DNA of 64,000 nt from assembly GCF_048403405.1 (NCBI RefSeq), contig NZ_CP183129.1; one strand, written 5' to 3'. The translations under genes and the position numbers were made by a program. The DNA comes from Escherichia coli (lineage in GTDB: Bacteria > Pseudomonadota > Gammaproteobacteria > Enterobacterales > Enterobacteriaceae). Shown here one piece after another: positions 17,975 to 61,557 of the stretch. Position 1 is the first letter of the stretch; each line of letters begins with the position of its first letter. The notes below the pieces were generated by a model. The model did no database searches. It was not told the DNA's origin and saw only the letters and a list, made by a program, of their open reading frames with translations.

Positions 17975-19618
17975 ATGCGCCAGGTATTATCGTCTCTTTT
18001 GGTGATTGCTGGACTTGTGAGTGGTCAGGCAATCGCCGCGCCTGAATCCCCCCCGCATGCTGATATCCGCGACAGCGGTTTTGTCTATTGCGTCAGCGGG
18101 CAAGTCAACACCTTTAACCCATCCAAAGCGAGCAGTGGGTTAATTGTCGATACCCTTGCCGCCCAGTTTTATGATCGACTGCTGGATGTCGATCCCTATA
18201 CCTATCGCCTGATGCCGGAACTTGCCGAAAGCTGGGAAGTTCTCGATAACGGCGCGACCTATCGCTTCCACCTGCGTCGCGATGTTCCGTTTCAAAAAAC
18301 CGACTGGTTTACTCCCACTCGTAAAATGAATGCCGACGATGTGGTGTTTACCTTCCAGCGAATTTTTGACCGCAACAACCCGTGGCATAACGTCAACGGC
18401 AGCAACTTCCCCTACTTCGACAGCCTGCAATTTGCCGATAACGTGAAAAGCGTCCGCAAACTGGATAATCATACGGTTGAGTTCCGACTCGCCCAGCCGG
18501 ATGCTTCTTTTTTGTGGCACCTGGCGACCCATTATGCATCGGTCATGTCGGCAGAATATGCCCGGAAGTTAGAGAAAGAAGATCGCCAGGAGCAACTCGA
18601 CCGTCAACCGGTCGGCACTGGACCGTATCAGTTGTCGGAATACCGCGCCGGGCAATTTATTCGCCTACAACGTCATGATGACTTCTGGCGCGGTAAACCG
18701 TTAATGCCGCAGGTGGTGGTGGATTTAGGCTCCGGCGGCACCGGACGTCTGTCGAAACTCCTGACCGGGGAATGCGACGTTCTGGCCTGGCCTGCTGCGA
18801 GCCAGCTATCCATTTTGCGTGACGACCCGCGCTTGCGTTTAACGCTGCGTCCTGGGATGAACGTCGCCTATCTGGCATTTAACACCGCCAAACCGCCACT
18901 AAATAATCCCGATGTCCGCCATGCGCTGGCACTGGCGATTAATAACCAGCGCCTGATGCAATCCATCTATTATGGTACGGCTGAAACGGCGGCCTCTATT
19001 TTACCGCGCGCCTCGTGGGCCTATGACAACGAGGCTAAAATTACTGAATATAATCCGGCGAAATCGCGCGAACAGTTGAAGGCGTTGGGGCTGGAAAACT
19101 TAACGCTGAAACTGTGGGTACCAACACGTTCGCAGGCGTGGAACCCCAGTCCACTGAAAACTGCCGAATTGATTCAGGCGGATATGGCACAGGTTGGCGT
19201 AAAAGTGGTGATTGTGCCGGTAGAAGGTCGCTTTCAGGAGGCGCGGTTGATGGATATGAGCCATGATCTGACGTTATCCGGTTGGGCGACTGACAGTAAC
19301 GACCCGGACAGTTTCTTCCGTCCGTTACTGAGCTGCGCGGCAATTCATTCGCAGACCAACCTCGCCCACTGGTGCGATCCGAAATTCGACAGCGTATTGC
19401 GTAAGGCGCTCTCCTCGCAGCAACTGGCGGCGCGCATCGAAGCCTATGACGAAGCGCAGAGTATTCTGGCGCAGGAATTGCCCATTTTGCCGCTGGCGTC
19501 GTCATTGCGTTTGCAGGCCTATCGGTACGATATCAAAGGTCTGGTACTTAGCCCGTTTGGTAACGCCTCCTTTGCTGGGGTGTATCGCGAGAAACAGGAT
19601 GAGGTGAAAAAACCATGA
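17975..19618 (+). CDS. sapA: Periplasmic substrate-binding protein of Sap ABC transporter
   Basis: 547-aa ORF with signal peptide, family-5 solute-binding protein; first gene of sapABCDF. Confidence 0.9.
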
Positions 19619-22450: not shown

Positions 22451-23257
22451 ATGATCGAAACGCTGCTTGAAGTGCGTAATTTAAGTAAAACGTTCCGCTA
22501 CCGGACCGGCTGGTTTCGTCGTCAGACCGTAGAAGCGGTAAAACCCTTGAGCTTTACGCTACGTGAAGGCCAGACACTGGCGATCATTGGTGAGAATGGT
22601 TCTGGTAAATCCACGCTGGCAAAAATGCTGGCGGGAATGATAGAACCTACCAGCGGCGAGTTATTGATTGACGATCATCCGCTGCATTTTGGCGATTATT
22701 CCTTCCGCAGTCAGCGTATTCGCATGATTTTTCAGGATCCTTCGACCTCGTTGAATCCCCGTCAACGTATCTCGCAAATTCTGGATTTTCCACTGCGTCT
22801 GAACACCGATCTGGAACCTGAACAGCGTCGCAAACAGATTATTGAAACGATGCGTATGGTTGGGCTGCTACCGGATCACGTCAGTTACTATCCGCATATG
22901 TTGGCACCCGGGCAAAAACAGCGTCTGGGGCTGGCGCGCGCGCTGATATTGCGCCCAAAAGTCATTATTGCCGATGAAGCCCTCGCCTCACTGGATATGT
23001 CGATGCGTTCGCAGTTGATTAATCTGATGCTTGAGTTACAGGAAAAACAGGGCATTTCGTATATTTATGTTACCCAGCATATCGGAATGATGAAGCACAT
23101 TAGCGACCAGGTGCTGGTGATGCATCAGGGCGAGGTTGTCGAGCGAGGCAGCACCGCCGATGTGCTGGCATCGCCGCTGCATGAACTCACCAAACGGCTG
23201 ATCGCCGGTCATTTTGGCGAGGCATTGACGGCGGATGCGTGGCGTAAGGACCGTTAG
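22451..23257 (+). CDS. sapF: Sap ABC transporter ATP-binding protein
   Basis: 268-aa ORF with Walker A (GENGSGKST); last gene of the operon. Confidence 0.9.
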   Translation: MIETLLEVRNLSKTFRYRTGWFRRQTVEAVKPLSFTLREGQTLAIIGENGSGKSTLAKMLAGMIEPTSGELLIDDHPLHFGDYSFRSQRIRMIFQDPSTSLNPRQRISQILDFPLRLNTDLEPEQRRKQIIETMRMVGLLPDHVSYYPHMLAPGQKQRLGLARALILRPKVIIADEALASLDMSMRSQLINLMLELQEKQGISYIYVTQHIGMMKHISDQVLVMHQGEVVERGSTADVLASPLHELTKRLIAGHFGEALTADAWRKDR

Positions 23258-23265
23258 TGTTTTGC

Positions 23266-23302
23266 ACCTCATCCTGACAGGGGCCCCCCTCAGGATGAGG
23301 TG
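23266..23302. terminator. Bidirectional stem-loop between convergent sapF and the MFS transporter gene
   Basis: Perfect 13-bp inverted repeat CACCTCATCCTGA / TCAGGATGAGGTG around a G/C-rich loop, filling the 49-bp gap between two convergent stop codons. Confidence 0.55.
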
Positions 23303-23306
23303 TTCA

Positions 23307-24470
23307 TTACTTTTGATTGTCGATTCTGGTGAGAGCAACCAGCAATGCCAGCGTATAACACACCGTAATTGCCAGACTCATTTTTAACAGTGTTTCTCCG
23401 CCAATTCCCGACAATGGCGCGGCTATACCGCCGAAGACAAACATGCTCATCCCCATCAACGCAGACGCCGTTCCAGATTCCTGCGTCCCTACTGCACTCA
23501 TAGCCTCTGCCCCGCCAACAGTGCCGATGCCGCTACAAAATGCGATGGTGAAAAATAATGCCACCAGTGCCGGAATGGGCAATTGTATCCATGCGCATAA
23601 GACCGTGAGCAATGCACACAAAATTGCCGCTATCAGGCCACCTCGCAACAATGTCATCGCGTTAATCCGTCGCGCCAGGCGCGAGAAGATCCATGAAGCA
23701 ATGATAAGTCCGATGCCGTTAAGGCCAAACACCAGGCTAAATTGCATTGGATTAAAGCCAAATTCCTTCTGCAACACGAACGACGAAGAGCCGATATATG
23801 CAAACAAACCGGCCAGCATAAAACTTTGAATCAGGCAAAAGCGCATAAAACGGCGGTTCTGCACCACGCTTCGTCCGGTTAATAGCAATGATGAGCCCCT
23901 TTTATTTTCTGGCAAGGTCTCATTAATAAATAACAGGCAGCCCAGCAACAGTACGGTGCTAATTTCAGCCATTACCCAGAATAAAGTGCGCCAGTCAAAA
24001 GTGCTGACAATGTACCCGCCCAGCACTGGCGACAACACCGGTGCCAGGCCATTCACCGTCATTAACAGCGCAAAAAACTGGGTCAACGTTACTCCCTGAT
24101 ATTTGTCACGAGCAATAGAACGAGAGAGCACCGAACCACCCGCCCCCGCGATCCCTTGAATAAAACGCCAGACCACCAGCCAGTAAATATTGTTCGTTGT
24201 CGCGCACAAAATGGAAGAAACAATAAACAATAGCAACGACAAGATTAACGGACGTTTACGCCCTATTTTGTCGCTCAGAGGGCCAAATAACAGTTGTCCG
24301 ACGCCAAGACCGATCAGTGATGCAGTCAGCGTTAATTGCGTTATGGTCGTGGTTGCCGCCAGTTGCTCAGACATCTCCGGCAAAGCCGGCAAATAAAGAT
24401 CGGTACACATCGGGCCGATACCGGCTAAAAGACCAAGAATCAATGCCCATGAAAGAGAGACTCTAGCCAT
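23307..24470 (-). CDS. MFS drug/H+ antiporter, Bcr/CflA (DHA1) family, 12 TM
   Basis: 387-aa ORF with MFS signature region GPLSDKIGRKRP and 12 predicted TM segments; 8 bp downstream of the OMF gene. Confidence 0.8.
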   Translation of the reverse strand: MARVSLSWALILGLLAGIGPMCTDLYLPALPEMSEQLAATTTITQLTLTASLIGLGVGQLLFGPLSDKIGRKRPLILSLLLFIVSSILCATTNNIYWLVVWRFIQGIAGAGGSVLSRSIARDKYQGVTLTQFFALLMTVNGLAPVLSPVLGGYIVSTFDWRTLFWVMAEISTVLLLGCLLFINETLPENKRGSSLLLTGRSVVQNRRFMRFCLIQSFMLAGLFAYIGSSSFVLQKEFGFNPMQFSLVFGLNGIGLIIASWIFSRLARRINAMTLLRGGLIAAILCALLTVLCAWIQLPIPALVALFFTIAFCSGIGTVGGAEAMSAVGTQESGTASALMGMSMFVFGGIAAPLSGIGGETLLKMSLAITVCYTLALLVALTRIDNQK

Positions 24471-24478
24471 ATTATTCC

Positions 24479-25852
24479 TTACTTGAGTGATGACATGCCG
24501 CCGCCCAGCGACTGCCAGAGCGTGATTCGGTTTGTAAAATCAGTCAGTTGTAGTGCCAGCAGCGCCTGCTGTGCGCTCCACAAGCTGCGCTGCGCCGTCA
24601 ACACGGTCAGGTAATCACCAACACCCGCCTGATAGCGACGCAAGCCAACATCGACCGTTTGTTGCTCAGCTTTAACATACTGGCGCTGTGCATCCAGTTG
24701 CTCTTCAAGCGTGGTCCGCCGCGCCAGTGCGTTAGCGACATCTTTAAATGCGCTCTGAACGGTTTTTTCATAGGTGGCAATGAGTCCACGCTTTTGTGCT
24801 TCTGCGTAACGAAGCTGCGCCAGATTACTTCCGCCAGTGAACAGCGGTAATGTGACCGATGGCGTAAATGACCAGATCTGCATTCCGTGGCTGAACAACG
24901 ACGACAATGCTTCACTGCCAACACCAGCGCTGGCAGTCAGCGAAATCGTCGGAAAAAAGTTAGCCCGCGCCGCGCCAATATCGGCATTGGCGCTCTTCAA
25001 ATTATGTTCCGCTTCCTGGATATCCGGGCGACGCAGCAGAACGTCAGATGACACTCCCGCAGGAACCAGACTTATCATCTGTTCCGGCAGGCTTTCCAGT
25101 GTTCCCGGTAGCAAATTTTCCTCAAGCGTTGTACCTGCCAGTAAGTTCAGCGCATTTTTATCCTGCATCACTTGTGTCTGATAGCTGGCAACGCTGGCGC
25201 GCGCTTGCTGATAAACACTCATCGCCTCACTGACATCTGTCGCTGCCGCCGTGCCAACCTGTTGCTGGCGCTGGATAATTTTCAATGAGTTTTCTGCACT
25301 GGCCATCGTTTCTTTTGCCAGGGCCAGGTTGCTGTTATCAGCCGCCAGTGTCAGCCAGGCGGTGCTGATTTCAGCAATCAGCGTTAAACGAGTGTTCTGG
25401 GCTGTAAATTCACTGGCAAGCCAGGTTTCCCGCGCCGCCCGAGATAAACTCTGATTACGACCAAACAGATCTAACGTAAAACTGGACACCGTGCCGTCAG
25501 CCTCGGCAGTGGTTTCCGTACCATTCGCCAGCGAACGACTGCGGGTTGAACTTAAGGCCGCATTCACCGTCGGGAATAACGACGCATTAGTTTGCCCATA
25601 GAGCGCCCGTGCTGAGTCAATATCAGCAATCGCTTTTTGCACATCGCGGTTACTGTTCAGTGCAATAGTCACCACCTGCTGCAATCGGGGATCGTGGATC
25701 ACCTGCTGCCAGTCATGGCTGATTGCCTTTCCCTGGCCCTGTGCTCCCGGCAAGGTCGCCGGGATTGGGGATTCAGGCGTGCTGTAGTGGGGCTCGAGCG
25801 AGACACATCCCGCACTCAACAGCACCAGAAAAATAAGAGAACGACGCAACAT
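24479..25852 (-). CDS. Outer-membrane efflux lipoprotein, NodT/OprM family
   Basis: 457-aa ORF with lipoprotein signal (LLSAGC) and OprM-like outer membrane factor repeats; 3 bp downstream of the RND gene. Confidence 0.85.
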   Translation of the reverse strand: MLRRSLIFLVLLSAGCVSLEPHYSTPESPIPATLPGAQGQGKAISHDWQQVIHDPRLQQVVTIALNSNRDVQKAIADIDSARALYGQTNASLFPTVNAALSSTRSRSLANGTETTAEADGTVSSFTLDLFGRNQSLSRAARETWLASEFTAQNTRLTLIAEISTAWLTLAADNSNLALAKETMASAENSLKIIQRQQQVGTAAATDVSEAMSVYQQARASVASYQTQVMQDKNALNLLAGTTLEENLLPGTLESLPEQMISLVPAGVSSDVLLRRPDIQEAEHNLKSANADIGAARANFFPTISLTASAGVGSEALSSLFSHGMQIWSFTPSVTLPLFTGGSNLAQLRYAEAQKRGLIATYEKTVQSAFKDVANALARRTTLEEQLDAQRQYVKAEQQTVDVGLRRYQAGVGDYLTVLTAQRSLWSAQQALLALQLTDFTNRITLWQSLGGGMSSLK

Positions 25853-25855
25853 AAC

Positions 25856-28800
25856 TTACTCCTGACGGCGCGGTTTACCGGCAAACAAACGTTTCACCAG
25901 TACAAAAAACAGAGGAACAAAGAAAATAGCCAGCAACGTAGCGGTCAGCGTACCGCCAATAATGCCCGTACCAATGGCGATGCGGCTGTTCGCCCCTGCG
26001 CCGGTTGCTATCGCCAGCGGCATTACCCCCGCAATAAACGCCAGCGAGGTCATGATGATTGGGCGTAAACGAGTCTGCGCCGCGCGTAATGCCGCACGAC
26101 TCAAGGAATAGCCCTCTGCAACCGCCGCTTCAGCAAATTCCACAATCAGAATGGCGTTTTTCGACGACAAGCCGATAGTGGTTAATAGCGCCACCTGGAA
26201 GTAAACATCGTTGTTTAAATCACGCATCCAGGCCGCCAGCGCCGCGCCAAGAAGCCCCAGAGGGATCACCAGAATGACCGAGAACGGGACTGACCAGCTT
26301 TCGTACAGTGCTGCAAGGCAGAGGAAAACCACCAGAATAGAAACTGCATACAGACTCAATGCCTGACCGCTGGCCAGTTTCTCCTGCAATGACAAACCAC
26401 TCCAGGCCCAGGTTGTTCCCGCAGGAAGACTGTTTGCCAGTTCCTCCATTTTTGTCATTGCATCGCCGGAACTAAAGCCAGTCGCATTTTCCCCCTGAAT
26501 TTCATAGGCTGCAGAACCGTTGTAGCGCACCAGTCTTTCCGGTCCATACAGCCAGCGGGTGGTTGCAAAAGCAGAGAATAGTGTCATGGCGTTATCGCTA
26601 CCGCGCACAAACCATTTACCTAAGTCTGACGGCGTGGAACGAAATTCACTGTCGCCCTGAATGTAGACTTTTTTCACACGACCACGGTCAATAAAGTCAT
26701 TCACATAAGTACCGCCCCACGCACTGGACAGGGTGTCGGTGACATCATTCAAACTCAACCCTAATGACACCGCTTTATTACTATCAATATCTACCTGCAA
26801 TTGCGGCATTTGTGGCAAATCATTGGCACGCACAGAATGTAACTCCGGACTTTGATTCGCTTTTTCTATCAACTGATTACGCATTTGCAGTAGTGTTTCG
26901 CGATCGGTTCCACCGTTAGCTAACAATTCAAACGTAAAACCATTGCTTTGCCCCAGCCCATCAACGGCTGGCGGCGTCATCGCAAATACCGTGGCATCAC
27001 GAATTGTGCCCAGCTCTTTGGTTGCCCGTAGGGCGATAGCCTGGGCGGTGTTTTCTGCCCCTTTACGTTGAGACCAGTTTTTCAACGAAACAAACGCCAT
27101 CCCGGTGTTCTGTCCGCTGCCGCTAAAACTGAAACCATCAACGGTAAAAATGACATCGGTATTTGCTTTCTCATTAATCAGGAACCAGTCAACAATCTGG
27201 CGATTCACTTCTGCTGTACGGGCAGCGGTCGCCCCGGCCGGCAGCGTGTACTGCACCATGATTTCGCCCTGGTCTTCAGTGGGTAAGAAACTGCCCGGCA
27301 GTTTCCACATCATCAGGGCCATTCCACCACCCAGTACGACATAAAGCCCCATCGTTCGAGCAGCACGGCGCAGGACATAAATTACGCCTCGCTGATATTT
27401 ATCTTCAGTACGGCGGTAAAAGCGGTTAAATGCGCCGAAAAAGCCTTTTTTATGTGGCGGAACATGCTGGAGGACGGAACCGCACAGGGCGGGAGTCAAG
27501 GTCAATGCCACTACCACGGAAAGCAGCATTGCGGAGATAATGGTTATCGAAAACTGACGATAAATTACCCCCGTAGATCCCCCAAAGAAGGCCATAGGCA
27601 GGAATACGGCTGACAACACCAGCGCAATGGCAACCAGTGCGCCAGAAATCTCGCCCATTGATTTTTCCGTGGCTTCACGCGCGGGCAACCCTTCGTCACG
27701 CATAATACGTTCGACGTTCTCCACCACCACAATGGCATCGTCCACCAGCAAGCCGATCGCCAGCACCATTGCAAACAACGTCAGGGTATTAATCGAATAG
27801 CCAAACAACGCAAGAACGCCGAATGTGCCCAGCAAAACGACGGGGACAGCTAACGCCGGAATCAGTGTGGCACGCAGGTTTTGCAGGAATAAATACATCA
27901 CGCAAACCACCAATACGATGGCTTCAAACAGCGTCTGAATTACGTCCTCTACAGAGATTTTAATAAATTCAGTGCTGTCTTTCGGGTATGCGATGTCGTA
28001 TCCCTGCGGCATGTTCCGCTGGAATTCGGCAATCTTATCCTTGACCAGCGTCGCCGTATTCAGCGCATTCGCACCGGGCGAAAGCATTACAGCAACCCCG
28101 GCAGACGGGTGACCGTTAAGTTTGCCGATAGCGGTATAATCTTCACTGCCCATCTCAACGCGAGCCACATCTTTTATACGAACAACTGCGCCGTCTGACT
28201 GGCTTTTCACGATAATATTTTTGAACTGATCCACCGTCTGCAAGCGAGACTGCGCACGTACCGTTGCGGTCAGTTGCTGAGTATTCGGTGAAGGCAATGC
28301 CCCTATTTTCCCGGCAGTAACCTGCACGTTTTGCGCTTCAATAGCACTTTGCACGTCTGAAGGCATTAGCGAGTAAGACGCCAGTTTGGCCGGGTCAAGC
28401 CAGATGCGCATAGCGTATTCCGCGCCAAAGACTTGCAGACTCCCCACACCTTCAACACGCGCCAGCGGGTCCTGAACGTTACTAACCAACCAGTCGGCGA
28501 TATCCGAACTGGAGGCTTTGTCAGTGGTGTCATACACGGCAGCAATCAGCAAAAAGTTGCTTTGTGATTTCTCCACCGTAACACCCGTTTGCTGCACTTC
28601 GCTGGGTAGGCGCGACTCCGCCTGCTGAATTTTATTCTGCACCTGAACCTGTGCAGTATCTGGATCGGTACCTTGTTCAAAGGTCACATTAATACTGACC
28701 GAACCATCAGAGCTGCTGGTTGAGCTGAAATAGAGTAAATTATCAAGCCCAGTGAGTTGTTGCTCGATAACCTGAGTCACGCTGTTCTCCAGCGTTTCGG

Positions 28801-28963
28801 CAGAAGCACCAGTATAAGTGGCTGAAATTTTAATGGTCGGTGGCGCAACGTCAGGATATTGCGCGACGGGCAATGTGCGAATAGCCAGAATCCCCGCCAA
28901 CATAATCAAAATGGCGATAACCCAGGCAAAGACCGGGCGGCGAACAAAAAAGCGCGAAAACAT
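25856..28963 (-). CDS. RND multidrug efflux permease (AcrB/MexB/HAE1 family)
   Basis: 1035-aa ORF with clear similarity to AcrB/MdtF but not identical to any K-12 RND pump I can recall; 12 TM plus large periplasmic loops. Confidence 0.9.
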   Translation of the reverse strand: MFSRFFVRRPVFAWVIAILIMLAGILAIRTLPVAQYPDVAPPTIKISATYTGASAETLENSVTQVIEQQLTGLDNLLYFSSTSSSDGSVSINVTFEQGTDPDTAQVQVQNKIQQAESRLPSEVQQTGVTVEKSQSNFLLIAAVYDTTDKASSSDIADWLVSNVQDPLARVEGVGSLQVFGAEYAMRIWLDPAKLASYSLMPSDVQSAIEAQNVQVTAGKIGALPSPNTQQLTATVRAQSRLQTVDQFKNIIVKSQSDGAVVRIKDVARVEMGSEDYTAIGKLNGHPSAGVAVMLSPGANALNTATLVKDKIAEFQRNMPQGYDIAYPKDSTEFIKISVEDVIQTLFEAIVLVVCVMYLFLQNLRATLIPALAVPVVLLGTFGVLALFGYSINTLTLFAMVLAIGLLVDDAIVVVENVERIMRDEGLPAREATEKSMGEISGALVAIALVLSAVFLPMAFFGGSTGVIYRQFSITIISAMLLSVVVALTLTPALCGSVLQHVPPHKKGFFGAFNRFYRRTEDKYQRGVIYVLRRAARTMGLYVVLGGGMALMMWKLPGSFLPTEDQGEIMVQYTLPAGATAARTAEVNRQIVDWFLINEKANTDVIFTVDGFSFSGSGQNTGMAFVSLKNWSQRKGAENTAQAIALRATKELGTIRDATVFAMTPPAVDGLGQSNGFTFELLANGGTDRETLLQMRNQLIEKANQSPELHSVRANDLPQMPQLQVDIDSNKAVSLGLSLNDVTDTLSSAWGGTYVNDFIDRGRVKKVYIQGDSEFRSTPSDLGKWFVRGSDNAMTLFSAFATTRWLYGPERLVRYNGSAAYEIQGENATGFSSGDAMTKMEELANSLPAGTTWAWSGLSLQEKLASGQALSLYAVSILVVFLCLAALYESWSVPFSVILVIPLGLLGAALAAWMRDLNNDVYFQVALLTTIGLSSKNAILIVEFAEAAVAEGYSLSRAALRAAQTRLRPIIMTSLAFIAGVMPLAIATGAGANSRIAIGTGIIGGTLTATLLAIFFVPLFFVLVKRLFAGKPRRQE

Positions 28964-30084
28964 CAGGCGTTGCCTCCATTAGCCTGAACTTCAACAGCCT
29001 TGACGGTCTGCCCTGAAGTGACTTTGGCAGAACCTTCAACAATCAGTCGGTCGCCGTTGTGCAGGCCGTTCAGCACCAGCCATTTATCACCATACGTTTC
29101 TCCCGTTTCGAGCGTTCGCTGCTCTACTTTATTGTCTTTATTCACCACCAGCGCAGTTGCATTGCCTTTAGCATCGCGCGTGACGCCCTGTTGCGGCGCG
29201 AGAATAGCGTCTTCCATCACGCCTTCATCGACACGAGCGCGAACAAACATTCCCGGTAATAACTGCTGTTGTGGATTGGGGAAAATCGCCCGTAATGTCA
29301 CCGAACCGGTAGACTCATCTACAGCGACTTCGGTGAGTTCCAGACGCCCTTTTTCGCTGTAGGTTGTGCCATCTTCCAGAATAAGTGAGACGCTCATGGT
29401 GTCACTGTTGGTCGCCAGTGACTGTTTACGCAGACGTAATAAATCGACACTGGAGCGAGTGAGGTCGACATACATTGTCTCCAGACCACGAATAGTCGTT
29501 AACGCTGTATCTTGCGACGCGGTCACCAGTGCGCCAGGGGTTACCGACGAAATGCCAATTCGCCCTGAAATCGGTGCGGTTACCGTGGTCCAGTCAAGAT
29601 TAATGCGCGCAGTTTCCAGCGCGGCTTTTTTCGCCTCTACACTGGCTTTATCTTGTGCACAGGTAGACTGAGCATCATCAGCATCCTGTTGTGAAACACC
29701 GTTCTCTTTCACCAGTCGGGCATAACGCTGCGCTTTCTGGCAATCGGCTTTTACCAGTGCCTGTGCTTGTTGTAATGCTGCCCGAGCTTCATTCCATGCA
29801 GCCTGATAACTGACCGCATCAATCTGGTAGAGAGGCTGTCCAGCCTTGACCAGATCCCCTTCCTTAAATAAGCGTTTCTGGATAATTCCCCCAACCTGCG
29901 GACGTACTTCAGCACTGAGCGCAGCACTGGTGCGTCCGGTTAATTCACTGACTACCGAGACCGGTTGAGATTTGACTGTAACAACGCCGACTTCTGTTTC
30001 TGACGGGGATGAATTGTTACTTTGCGTATTATCACAACCAGATAAGAGCAGCATTGCCACTACAGATGTTGCTATATACTTCAT
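28963..30084 (-). CDS. RND efflux membrane fusion protein (periplasmic adaptor lipoprotein)
   Basis: ORF track 28963..30117; start refined to ATG 30082-30084 (373 aa) preceded by GGAG; lipobox LLSGC; AcrA/MexA-like; stop overlaps the RND start. Confidence 0.85.
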   Translation of the reverse strand: MKYIATSVVAMLLLSGCDNTQSNNSSPSETEVGVVTVKSQPVSVVSELTGRTSAALSAEVRPQVGGIIQKRLFKEGDLVKAGQPLYQIDAVSYQAAWNEARAALQQAQALVKADCQKAQRYARLVKENGVSQQDADDAQSTCAQDKASVEAKKAALETARINLDWTTVTAPISGRIGISSVTPGALVTASQDTALTTIRGLETMYVDLTRSSVDLLRLRKQSLATNSDTMSVSLILEDGTTYSEKGRLELTEVAVDESTGSVTLRAIFPNPQQQLLPGMFVRARVDEGVMEDAILAPQQGVTRDAKGNATALVVNKDNKVEQRTLETGETYGDKWLVLNGLHNGDRLIVEGSAKVTSGQTVKAVEVQANGGNA

Positions 30085-30232: not shown

Positions 30233-30799
30233 TTATTTATTTATCAACATACTAACAATATCCTGATATATTTCCTGCAGATGTTGTGGATCGCTTTTTT
30301 GCGGTGTTAAACGACGATAAACCGTACCTTCCATCATGGTAGCAAACACTTCAACGCAGCAACGAATGTGCTCGTCGCTAAGATGGGGATGCATTCTTTT
30401 CATATGTGCACAACCGTTAGCGAACATTCTGGCGTCAGCTTCTTCAAGCATTGCCATAACCCGCGGGTTGCGTGTGGCTTCTGCAGCCACTTCCAGCATC
30501 AGCGCGTCGTCGTCCTCATTTAAGGATTTACGCAAGGCAAGGACTTCCGGGAAGTGATCGGTACGCGCGTCAATGTCCATTTGGGCAATACGAAAGTCGA
30601 TGATACGGCGAACCATCTCTTCAATAATGGCGTCTTTGTTGGCGAAGTAACGATATATCTGACCCACGCTAAGCTGAGCTTCGCTGGCAATTTGCGACAT
30701 ACTGGCGGCATGAAACCCGCAGCGACGAAAACACCGACGGGCGGCGTTAATGATTTCATCCTGACGCTGTTTGTGGCGTATCTCCAGCTTGCTGGTCAT
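30233..30799 (-). CDS. TetR/AcrR-family transcriptional regulator
   Basis: ORF track 30233..30898; start refined to ATG 30797-30799 (188 aa) preceded by AGGAGA; N-terminal TetR HTH (SMSQIASEAQLSVGQIYRYFANKD). Confidence 0.8.
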   Translation of the reverse strand: MTSKLEIRHKQRQDEIINAARRCFRRCGFHAASMSQIASEAQLSVGQIYRYFANKDAIIEEMVRRIIDFRIAQMDIDARTDHFPEVLALRKSLNEDDDALMLEVAAEATRNPRVMAMLEEADARMFANGCAHMKRMHPHLSDEHIRCCVEVFATMMEGTVYRRLTPQKSDPQHLQEIYQDIVSMLINK

Positions 30800-31276
30800 T
30801 TCTGTCTCCTGGCCTATCACTTGGTGAGAATGATCGTTCTCATTTTTGCTGATTATACGTTTCTCCAAAGTAATGGAAAGTATTTTTATCTTATTCATGG
30901 TGCATATTCTGATAATGAAGAGATTGTGGAGATTATGTGAAGATAGTTGACAATATTAAGTTGGGGTCAATTCATCAGAAAGGCTGCTACTTGTTGTCGC
31001 CAGTTCTGTTTTCATCATCAAACTTATCGGAGCTAATACGAATAGTTTCAGAGTCAGATTCTATAAGATATTCCCCCAACCTACCCCTTGCAGGCGTCAA
31101 GAGTAGATAACGCAAAATGCTCTGTACCGCAGCTTCTCTCCGGTACAGAAAGCGCAACTATAGCCACCCACAGCCAGGTTGATTATAATAACCGTTTATC
31201 TGTTCGTACTGTTTACTAAAACGACGAATCGCCTGATTTTCAGGCACAACAAGCATCAACAATAAGGATTAAAGCT

Positions 31277-32065
31277 ATGGGTTTTCTTTCCGGTAAGCGC
31301 ATTCTGGTAACCGGTGTTGCCAGCAAACTGTCCATCGCCTACGGTATCGCTCAGGCGATGCACCGCGAAGGAGCTGAACTGGCATTCACCTACCAGAACG
31401 ACAAACTGAAAGGCCGCGTAGAAGAATTTGCCGCTCAATTGGGTTCTGACATCGTTCTGCAGTGCGATGTTGCAGAAGATGCCAGCATCGACACCATGTT
31501 CGCTGAACTGGCGAAAGTTTGGCCGAAATTTGACGGTTTCGTACACTCTATTGGTTTTGCACCTGGCGATCAGCTGGATGGTGACTATGTTAATGCCGTT
31601 ACCCGTGAAGGCTTCAAAATTGCCCACGACATCAGCTCCTACAGCTTCGTTGCAATGGCAAAAGCTTGCCGCTCCATGCTGAATCCGGGTTCTGCCCTGC
31701 TGACCCTTTCCTACCTTGGCGCTGAGCGCGCTATCCCGAACTACAACGTTATGGGTCTGGCAAAAGCGTCTCTGGAAGCAAACGTGCGCTATATGGCGAA
31801 CGCAATGGGTCCGGAAGGTGTGCGTGTTAACGCCATCTCTGCGGGTCCGATCCGTACTTTGGCGGCCTCCGGTATCAAAGACTTCCGCAAAATGCTGGCT
31901 CATTGCGAAGCCGTTACCCCGATTCGCCGTACCGTTACTATTGAAGATGTGGGTAACTCCGCGGCATTCCTGTGCTCCGATCTCTCTGCCGGTATCTCCG
32001 GTGAAGTGGTCCACGTTGACGGCGGTTTCAGCATCGCTGCAATGAACGAACTCGAATTGAAATAA
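31277..32065 (+). CDS. fabI: Enoyl-ACP reductase (NADH)
   Basis: 262-aa [29 protein letters not shown]...; SDR family; matches FabI. Confidence 0.93.
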
Positions 32066-46483: not shown

Positions 46484-46855
46484 AGCTCCTCCTTAATGAC
46501 AGGGTTGCGAAGCCCTGATTCTCTTCAGGGTGAATATTAAAGATAACACAAACATCGCGTAACGATTTGATAACAACCCAAATTGATAAAAGAGGAGAAA
46601 GCTTGTGGCAAAACAAATGAAAACCCCGCCGCAGCGGGGTCAGGGATCAGTGAGTAATGATCCAGAGGAGTTCGGCCCAGAAGAGCATCGACAGAGAAAA
46701 TGCGCCCATCCAGGACCAATATTTCATATTTGTGTTGATCATAGGCTACACCTTTAACGGTTATTACTTTGTGTTGAGATAACTCAACCTGTTATTGCTG
46801 CGGTGTATTAAAAGCCCTGTAATTCATTAAAAATGGGTAATAAGAATGATGATAA

Positions 46856-51936: not shown

Positions 51937-52640
51937 CCTATAAGGCTCTCTTACCAGCCGCGCCCTAACAGGCGCACACGATCTGACATTTGCATCCAAC
52001 TTCGTTACTTACGGCCCGTAAACGGGCTGCCCGGATAGGGAATCGATAACTGCTCTCCCATTTTATCCTCTTCAAGCTGGTGCTTTATGTAATCCTGTAT
52101 CTTCGCCGTGTTCTTACCCACCGTATCGACGTAGTACCCTCTGCACCAGAACTCCCTGTTCCTGTATTTGAATTTCAAATCACCAAACTGCTCGTAAAGC
52201 ATCAGACTGCTTTTCCCTTTCAGATATCCCATAAAGCCGGATACGCTCATTTTGGGCGGGATCTCCACAAGCATATGGATATGATCTGCACAGCATTCAG
52301 CTTCCAGAATCCGTACACTTTTCCACTCACACAGCTTTCTCAAAATACTGCCTATTGCTCTACGCTTCTCTCTGTAGAACACCTGTCTTCGGTATTTTGG
52401 CGCAAAAACTATGTGATATTTACAGTTCCATCGGGTGTGCGCTAAGCTCTTTTCGTTCCCCATTGGGACCCCCTTTTGATTTCTTGTTTGACACTTGCAG
52501 TTGCCAGACCGCAAGGTGTTTTAACAAATCAAAAGGGGTTTTAATAACTGGCTTAAAGCTGAAAGCTTTCCGGAACCCCCAGCCTAGCTGGGGGTTTTCT
52601 GTGCACAAACAAAACGCGAGGTCTTAGCCTCGCGTTTGTC
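51937..52640 (-). mobile_element. IS200-like insertion sequence (IS200/IS605 family), approximate boundaries
   Basis: Contains a Y1 transposase gene plus the characteristic stem-loops (52576-52596 and 52611-52636); not present between yciN and sohB in K-12. Ends estimated from the expected ~0.7 kb size. Confidence 0.7.
52005..52463 (-). CDS. tnpA: IS200 transposase TnpA (HUH Y1 transposase)
   Basis: ORF track 52005..52514; start refined to ATG 52461-52463 (152 aa MGNEKSLAHTRWNCKYHIVFAPKYRR...), HxH motif (HIHMLVEIPP). Confidence 0.85.
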   Translation of the reverse strand: MGNEKSLAHTRWNCKYHIVFAPKYRRQVFYREKRRAIGSILRKLCEWKSVRILEAECCADHIHMLVEIPPKMSVSGFMGYLKGKSSLMLYEQFGDLKFKYRNREFWCRGYYVDTVGKNTAKIQDYIKHQLEEDKMGEQLSIPYPGSPFTGRK

Positions 52641-61442: not shown

Positions 61443-61487
61443 ATGAAAGCAATTTTCGTACTGAAAGGTTGGTGGCGCACTTCCTGA
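61443..61487 (+). CDS. trpL: trp operon leader peptide
   Basis: ATGAAAGCAATTTTCGTACTGAAAGGTTGGTGGCGCACTTCCTGA encodes [14 protein letters not shown] with tandem Trp codons. Confidence 0.88.
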
Positions 61488-61528
61488 AACGGGCAGTGTA
61501 TTCACCATGCGTAAAGCAATCAGATACC

Positions 61529-61557
61529 CAGCCCGCCTAATGAGCGGGCTTTTTTTT
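61529..61557 (+). terminator. trp attenuator (3:4 terminator hairpin plus U-tract)
   Basis: AGCCCGCC-taat-GAGCGGGCT followed by TTTTTTTT, between trpL and trpE. Confidence 0.85.

Follow-up and report, generated by a model that had tools for sequence, protein, structure and literature searches.

A strong stem-loop between the convergent genes sapF and eefD of Escherichia coli is probably a truncated relic of a DUF559 cassette promoter

Results

The sapF-fabI locus and its stem-loop

The window, as we call the whole 64-kb stretch of Escherichia coli DNA analyzed here, carries the sapABCDF genes, followed on the opposite strand by genes for an MFS transporter, an outer-membrane factor, an RND permease, a periplasmic adaptor and a TetR regulator, and then by fabI (Table 1). 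This order is that of the RefSeq annotation of E. coli TUM14771, in which the region is 100% identical, and gene identities were taken from that annotation and from Pfam. The efflux island is the eefRABCD cluster described in the available text of a recent report (Microb Genom 2026, PMC12817139). According to that text, the carriers of eefRABCD are E. marmotae, E. albertii and phylogroups B2, D, E, F and G, a 354-nt ycjD takes its site in phylogroups A, B1 and C, and the ycjD state is read as a repeated loss of eef. The locus studied here and its two possible contents are identical to those of the available text, and the split between them is comparable, as 2039 of 5426 complete E. coli genomes have an eef-type junction and 3378 a ycjD-type one. 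No recombinase or integrase gene is annotated in or beside the eef segment.

The stop codons of the convergent genes sapF and eefD are separated by 49 bp (23258-23306), and 38 of these are occupied by a stem-loop with a perfect 13-bp inverted repeat, in which the right arm is the exact reverse complement of the left one. An earlier note, made from the sequence of this DNA, had described such a repeat as nearly filling the gap, and this was borne out, although the repeat starts at 23265 and not at 23266.

Table 1. Coordinates of the features of the sapF-fabI locus in the window.
Feature	Position	Strand	Basis or remark
sapF, last gene of sapABCDF	22451-23257	+	stop TAG at 23255-23257
TGTTTTG	23258-23264	+	alignment; corresponds to TTTTCTG, the opening 7 nt of the ycjD cassette leader
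Palindromic stem-loop, 13-bp perfect arms plus inner G/C stem	23265-23302	strandless	sequence and folding
Left arm CACCTCATCCTGA	23265-23277	+	homologous to the left arm/-35 region of the K-12-type ycjD promoter palindrome
CTGACA, retained -35 hexamer of the putative former ycjD promoter	23274-23279	+	K-12 scan and PMC3946193
G/C-rich centre CAGGGGCCCCCC	23278-23289	strandless	homopolymer runs differ in length among strains
Right arm TCAGGATGAGGTG	23290-23302	+	homologous to the ycjD -10 region and start-codon region
CAGGAT, decayed -10 hexamer	23291-23296	+	11 nt after the -35 hexamer; 16-18 nt needed
eefD (MFS transporter), last eef gene, convergent with sapF	23307-24470	-	stop at 23307-23309
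eefC	24479-25852	-	RefSeq annotation of TUM14771; available text of PMC12817139
eefB	25856-28963	-	RefSeq annotation of TUM14771; available text of PMC12817139
eefA	28963-30084	-	RefSeq annotation of TUM14771; available text of PMC12817139
eefR	30233-30799	-	RefSeq annotation of TUM14771; available text of PMC12817139
Right edge of the alternative segment	31127-31276	+	K-12-type homology resumes at 31127 (N96 type: 31155) and runs into the fabI start at 31277

The RNA of positions 23255-23312 (58 nt) is predicted to fold at -32.1 kcal/mol when read from the plus strand and at -31.0 kcal/mol from the minus strand, with z-scores of -5.5 and -6.0, respectively, and none of 200 dinucleotide shuffles was as stable. 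The stem has 13 to 17 paired bases and a short loop, in such a way that it has the stability expected for the stem of an intrinsic terminator. A few other perfect inverted repeats of 12-14 bp with short loops exist within the 64 kb of the window, so that the hairpin is strong, yet not a unique kind of object. The window holds no further full copy of it, and the locus is single-copy in 5421 of the 5426 E. coli genomes, when the two matches obtained per genome are taken to be one palindrome read from either strand. Its evolutionary history is modestly interesting, but in sequence it is an ordinary stem-loop between genes.

No Rfam 15 family scored at or above its gathering score near 23265. The three matches above that score in the window lie elsewhere, and correspond to the sRNA STnc180 (46613-46815, minus strand), the Hfq-binding RNA STnc490 (52473-52596, minus strand) and the tryptophan operon leader (Trp leader; 61464-61557, plus strand). 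A search of viral contigs with the pattern of the arms gave no match.

The stem-loop as a transcript end

The earlier note had considered the hairpin as bidirectional, probably insulating the sap operon from the efflux island. A bidirectional intrinsic terminator needs a U-tract on both strands. On the sapF side (plus strand), the stem is followed by the moderately T-rich tail TTCATTACTTTTG, which consists of the eefD stop codon and the last eefD codons and has a marginal T-score of 2.49, the value being the same when the tail is read as TTCATTACTTTTGAT, whereas on the eefD side (minus strand) the tail CAAAACACTAACG, or CAAAACACTAACGGT, has a T-score of 0.02. Scored by hand with a d'Aubenton-Carafa-type discriminant, in the form that we assume for it, the plus-strand tail was also marginal. 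With a weak T-rich tail on the sapF side only, the sequence lends no support to termination in both directions, and a bidirectional terminator is unproven.

The hairpin resembles intrinsic terminators in its G/C-containing stem of at least 13 bp, in its short loop, in its location between convergent stops and in the partly U-rich tail on one strand. It differs from them in that this tail is not an uninterrupted U-tract, in that there is none on the eefD strand, and in that E. albertii has not kept it, no T-rich sequence following there on the sapF side. No U-tract follows the K-12 hairpin, near which the published Term-seq table of MG1655 lists no 3' end, and a consensus terminator scan picked up only a 5-bp sub-stem of the window hairpin. 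From these data we infer that its terminator or insulator activity would be at most that of a transcript-end stem-loop. If it has a role at present, this would most likely be a passive one at the RNA level. For sapABCDF transcripts the stem-loop would be a partial intrinsic terminator of weak to moderate strength, or a pause, given the incomplete U-tract after the stem on that strand, and for eef transcripts it would be a 3' stem-loop that might stabilize them, with no canonical termination on that strand.

The arms of the stem-loop in genomes without the island

The window was aligned with the K-12-type genomes EV36, YY76-1 and MG1655. In these genomes the sapF stop is followed by 27 nt and then by CACCTCATTCTGAC-aaaagattaaatctt-GTCAGAATGAGGTG, in such a way that the arms equal those of the window except for one compensatory change from a C-G to a T-A pair, and the loop differs. 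In N96, which has a divergent ycjD allele (85% amino-acid identity), the hairpin reads CACCTCATTCTGACAGG...CCTGTCAGAATGA. The identity of the left arm of the window hairpin was 93% over 15 nt with K-12 and 94% over 18 nt with the N96 type, and the hairpin of the eef-type genome L012 matched the ycjD-type hairpin of N96 at 19 of 19 and 12 of 13 nt. The variable C/T-G/A pair covaries perfectly, both in 10 aligned sequences and in the 23 distinct junction variants collected (23/23), and neither its C-G nor its T-A state goes with eef or ycjD in particular, given that L012 and E. albertii, both of the eef type, have T-A. The older state of the arm in Escherichia is CATTCTGACAGG.

A hairpin was found in every eef-type Escherichia junction examined, with folding energies from -22 to -33 kcal/mol. 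Among eef-type E. coli the arms do not change, and the central runs of G and C vary in length from GGCCCCC up to GGGGAAACCCCC. The core of the arms, CATTCTGACAG and CTGTCAGAATG, is identical in E. albertii (eef type) and in K-12 despite their differing immediate flanks, and this suggests a continuing constraint at the sequence level for which a passive relic would not account.

When the eef and ycjD haplotypes were compared by blastn, the shared sequences were the end of sapF (up to 23264), the hairpin arms and the sequence from the right edge of the alternative segment onwards (Table 1), and no remnants of eef genes were detected in the ycjD segment of K-12 apart from the hairpin. The left breakpoint of the alternative segment lies directly after the right arm, so that the hairpin is the last element shared before the haplotypes diverge, and therefore not island DNA. 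The earlier note had assigned the hairpin to the left junction of the island and proposed its comparison with the sapF-ycjD junction of K-12, where finding unchanged K-12 sequence would speak against a relation to the insertion. The outcome came close to this, as the K-12-type genomes have the same arms and no island. Its further suggestion that the hairpin marks a boundary was confirmed, since it sits exactly where the eefRABCD and ycjD contents of the sapF-fabI interval begin to differ. Judged by these alignments, the hairpin is backbone-side sequence, putatively inherited from the alternative ycjD cassette, and not a part of the efflux island.

The variability of this interval was also followed outside E. 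coli. SapF loci from 80 species were surveyed (L011-L090), and in several of them the downstream DNA that had been retrieved contained no fabI. In Enterobacteriaceae the distance between sapF and fabI is hypervariable, ranging from 28 bp to some 9.5 kb, and the inserts of different genera are unrelated. The 77 non-Escherichia SapF loci had neither a hairpin after sapF nor eef, and no such hairpin was found in other genera with fabI directly after sapF.

Some further elements were observed around the two junctions. An inverted repeat, TCTGTACCGCAG / CTCCGGTACAGA, at positions 31121-31149 of the window straddles the right breakpoint; L011 (Escherichia sp. MOD1-EC7003) has this repeat, E. albertii has a degraded version, and L012 lacks it. 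In a derivative of the EPEC strain E2348/69 (L006 / L237, 3537-5090) the IS4-family element ISEc13 interrupts the right hairpin arm, where it has a target duplication of 8-9 bp (CTCAGGAT), and eefD is intact beyond it. Between eefR and fabI of L011, at about 18,000-18,100, there is an element (GTGAATCCCCAGGAGCTTACATAAGTAAGTGACTGGGGTGAGCG) found in this lineage only, which we take to be ERIC/IRU-like.

Decay of the ycjD promoter in the window

In K-12, a promoter consensus scan detected in the hairpin a -35 hexamer, CTGACA, located in the left arm and separated by 16 nt from a -10 hexamer, CAGAAT, which lies in the right arm with a TG upstream. The extended -10 is TGnCAGAAT, and the hexamers match the consensus at 9 of 12 positions. 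Because of the palindrome, the promoter was called on both strands. Binding of the RpoD holoenzyme in the ycjD/sapF spacer has been found by genomic SELEX, with CTGACA-16-CAGAAT as the constitutive promoter of ycjD (Shimada et al. 2014, PMC3946193).

The window element is like this promoter in its position after sapF, in its arms, which are the same save the compensatory pair, in its -35 hexamer and in a recognizable -10. It differs in that the hexamers are 11 nt apart and the -10 reads CAGGAT, and in the absence of 20 nt of upstream leader and of ycjD itself, in such a way that the element faces the 3' end of eefD whereas that of K-12 faces ycjD. CTGACA agrees with the consensus at 5 of 6 positions and CAGGAT at 3 of 6, with the A at position 2 and the T at position 6. 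The spacer between both hexamers is of 16 nt in K-12, N96 and E. albertii, of 14-15 nt in other Escherichia species and of 9-13 nt in eef-type E. coli, and the 11 nt of the window are outside the range of 16-18 nt given in Table 1. No promoter-like site was called by the scan at the window hairpin. With an 11-nt spacer the geometry of the promoter is lost and the stem-loop remains, and most likely the element no longer works as a promoter.

The start of ycjD also lies in the hairpin, as its annotated GTG start corresponds to the final three bases of the right arm. Many ycjD alleles (L095, L118, L191, L210, L220) read GTG ATG GAT at this point, with the ATG 6 nt past the -10 hexamer, and K-12-type alleles read GTG ATA GAT (L002, 6626-6631). 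It is likely that K-12 lost the original ATG start and that its ycjD came to be annotated from a GTG inside the hairpin arm.

DUF559 cassettes and their leaders

The small gene ycjD is nuclease-like, and its product is a DUF559 protein (PF04480, E = 1.4e-49 in Pfam). Homologues with 59-67% identity over nearly the full query, and slightly higher values in alignments covering 87-88%, are found in Enterobacter, Kluyvera, Klebsiella, Phytobacter, Franconibacter and Scandinavium at two other chromosomal sites, one of them beside yggN, with hemW, yggM or dctM on the other side, and the second between an sbp-like gene and yfeX. Such DUF559 cassettes open, a few bases after the upstream stop codon, with a short hairpin (hairpin 1, CTGAAG...TTCCAG), to which there follow a second element (hairpin 2), cTCCcaTTCTGaCAGC...GCTGGCAGAGTGTGGGG-ATG, the ORF, ending in CCCTCTCCCTGA, and G/C-rich 3' palindromes. 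The window lacks the 20 nt needed to complete hairpin 1 of the leader, and no DUF559 ORF begins 6 nt after the -10 hexamer, the eefD stop being found instead.

An HMM built only from non-Escherichia leaders recognized the ycjD leaders of E. coli with E = 4e-6 (N96) and 4e-5 (K-12), and the same profile (nhmmer) gave no match with the window hairpin at E < 100. A covariance model of hairpin 2, also built without Escherichia sequences, was run on 144 kb, and its four best hits were the hairpins downstream of sapF, with 19.5 bits for L012 (eef type; E about 0.009), 18.5 for N96, 16.9 for K-12 and 13.6 for L011 (eef type). The window hairpin scored 9.8 bits with this model (E about 2.9) and ranked sixth in the window, in such a way that its link to the DUF559 cassettes is indirect, through other Escherichia variants. 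The window copy is the most derived one.

In the 12 non-Escherichia leaders, the invariant positions (12/12) were the TG of the -35, the C, A and T at positions 1, 2 and 6 of the -10 and the G preceding the -10 hexamer, and the distance from the -10 to the ATG was fixed at 6 nt. By contrast with these hexamers, covariation supporting an RNA stem was weak, with 73.6% of cells paired against 69.4% after shuffling, and with a covariation score that 60 of 500 shuffles reached. The conservation of the leaders thus fits promoter hexamers better than an RNA stem, and the conserved object across genera is a promoter, probably for a leaderless mRNA. Escherichia has turned this promoter into an unusually perfect palindrome.

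The 3' part of the cassettes was also inspected. Downstream of K-12 ycjD (L002, 6908-6979 and 7027-7085) there is a second truncated DUF559 3' end (ggagacggtgctggagaatatt...ctgaacc), followed by the G/C-rich palindromes of the cassettes, and this suggests successive insertions or replacements of cassettes at the site. Conserved palindromes at the end of the cassettes, CCCTCTCCCTGAAAGGGAGAGGG and CCCCTCGCCCCTTTGGGGAGAGGGTTAGGGTGAGGGG, were seen in L212, L215, L217 and L218 and in L002 (6968-7190), and at the Klebsiella loci L218/L219 a related repeat unit occurs in tandem after the DUF559 ORF.

Arm-like palindromes in metagenomes

A scan of metagenomes with the arm pattern (loci L092-L211) gave 77 non-Escherichia contigs, mostly of high GC content (median 66%), which share CCTCATCCTGAGG(A/T)GC, a motif reaching beyond the bases that the pattern required. 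These soil palindromes have the form CCTCATCCTGAGG(A/T)GC-(G/C-rich loop)-GC(A/T)CCTCAGGATGAGG, as in L093 (2274-2305) and L126 (140-187), and pairing often extends into variable flanks. Their arms have 11-13 nt in common with those of E. coli. Clustering of the neighbouring ORFs revealed no shared gene. A link with DUF559 was discarded, as phmmer with YcjD against the ORFs of 120 metagenome loci retrieved only 18 E. coli K-12-type contigs. The soil palindromes appear to be an unrelated and widespread family of dispersed palindromes.

Discussion

The stem-loop between sapF and eefD is, in our opinion, probably what remains, in truncated form, of the palindromic promoter and leader that belonged to a DUF559 (YcjD-family) cassette once located in the sapF-fabI interval. 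In the simplest reading, a DUF559 cassette would have entered this site first. Later, in the ancestor of the eef lineages, eefRABCD would have replaced the segment from the ycjD start codon through about 150 bp upstream of fabI, including the 3' repeats, with the breakpoint directly after the right arm, and the 20 nt of upstream leader would have been lost as well. At the eef-type junction the palindrome is retained, together with 7 nt from the leader of the cassette (TGTTTTG versus TTTTCTG), and it is from the hairpin and these seven flanking nucleotides that we infer the order of events. As the hairpin is common to both haplotypes, the eef state would have arisen where a DUF559 cassette was already present, which is what the comparison of junctions suggests.

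Some points weigh against such a history. No remnant of a YcjD ORF or of the 3' repeats of the cassette was found between eefR and fabI. In addition, the eef and ycjD haplotypes are both old, and because lineages have recombined it is harder to see which way the change went. If the cassette preceded eef, the account of a simple loss of eef that is given in the available text of PMC12817139 looks incomplete. The two accounts can coexist, provided that ycjD-type alleles spread later by homologous recombination. The words "terminator" and "inverted repeat" do not occur in the available text of that report, and the stem-loop is not described in it.

The reading closest to that of the earlier note is that the hairpin was built as a bidirectional intrinsic terminator, as a part of the efflux island that insulates sapABCDF from eefRABCD. 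Its strong and symmetric stem fills the convergent gap, a partly T-rich tail follows on the sapF side, and the hairpin has been kept, with changes in its inner pairs, in every eef-type Escherichia lineage examined; but the same hairpin exists in genomes without the island, where the gene that follows is co-directional with sapF, the U-tract is missing on the eefD side, after the K-12 hairpin and on the sapF side of E. albertii, and the terminator scan sees only the small sub-stem, so we regard this origin as unlikely. We find it quite improbable that the palindrome is an active recombination hotspot, whose DNA would promote breakage, slippage or site-specific exchange, causing the eef/ycjD swap exactly here. 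The left breakpoint does abut the right arm, a smaller inverted repeat straddles the right one, ISEc13 has entered the right arm in EPEC E2348/69, the homopolymer runs of the loop change in length between strains, and the sapF-fabI gap is hypervariable across Enterobacteriaceae. Against this, the segment and its borders are free of recombinase and integrase genes, the repeat at the right junction has decayed in E. albertii and is missing from L012, the site is also variable in other genera, which have no hairpin there, and a single historical event would also leave one breakpoint beside the palindrome.

It is a very remote prospect that eef-type strains still use the element as a promoter, possibly in both directions, to produce antisense RNA against eefD or sapF: in spite of the intact CTGACA, of the critical A and T that CAGGAT keeps and of the 16-nt spacer with TGTCAGAAT retained by the eef-type element of E. 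albertii, known promoters have been reported with spacers of 14-21 nt, the values found in eef-type E. coli lie below this range, and the scan calls none at the window hairpin. Even harder to believe is that the hairpin is a copy of a REP-like family of dispersed repeats, such as the CCTCATCCTGAGGAGC...GCTCCTCAGGATGAGG palindromes of soil metagenomes. This idea draws on the 77 non-Escherichia contigs with arm-like palindromes and on their motif, which extends past the search pattern, but members of REP/BIME-like families have many copies and this locus is single-copy in nearly all E. coli genomes, the older state of the Escherichia arm is less similar to the soil family than the derived one, the soil copies have neither a common neighbour gene nor a DUF559 gene nearby, and Rfam is silent at the hairpin.

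A broader proposal, which we hold to be rather unlikely, is that YcjD-type DUF559 genes are compact selfish cassettes, that the palindrome is a preferred breakpoint for exchange and that the window hairpin is the scar of such an exchange. The cassette would consist of the leader hairpin, the palindromic promoter for a leaderless mRNA, a nuclease-like ORF and the G/C-rich 3' palindromes. When transcription comes from outside, the RNA of the palindrome would form a stem that prevents translation, and as DNA the palindrome would be the preferred site to swap the body of the cassette for other cargo, such as eefRABCD. Fold-back stems occlude the start sites of the transposase genes of IS10 and IS50, shielding them from read-through transcripts. 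There is a likeness to these systems, as in a ycjD-type read-through RNA coming from sapF the anti-SD-like CACCTC would pair with GAGGTG near the start, and a transcript from the promoter of the palindrome itself would have no left arm; in the window, unlike in IS10 and IS50, there is no downstream ORF left to be regulated.

The hairpin fixes to the base the left breakpoint of the eefRABCD/ycjD polymorphism, which divides A, B1 and C from B2, D, E, F and G, the phylogroups with the strongest association with infection. As the relic of a cassette promoter, it would also be a case in which a promoter was disabled by the shortening of its spacer while its palindrome survived, and such a remnant can be mistaken for a terminator, which calls for caution in annotation. 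For the published story of the eef locus, the history of the hairpin would be a small correction.
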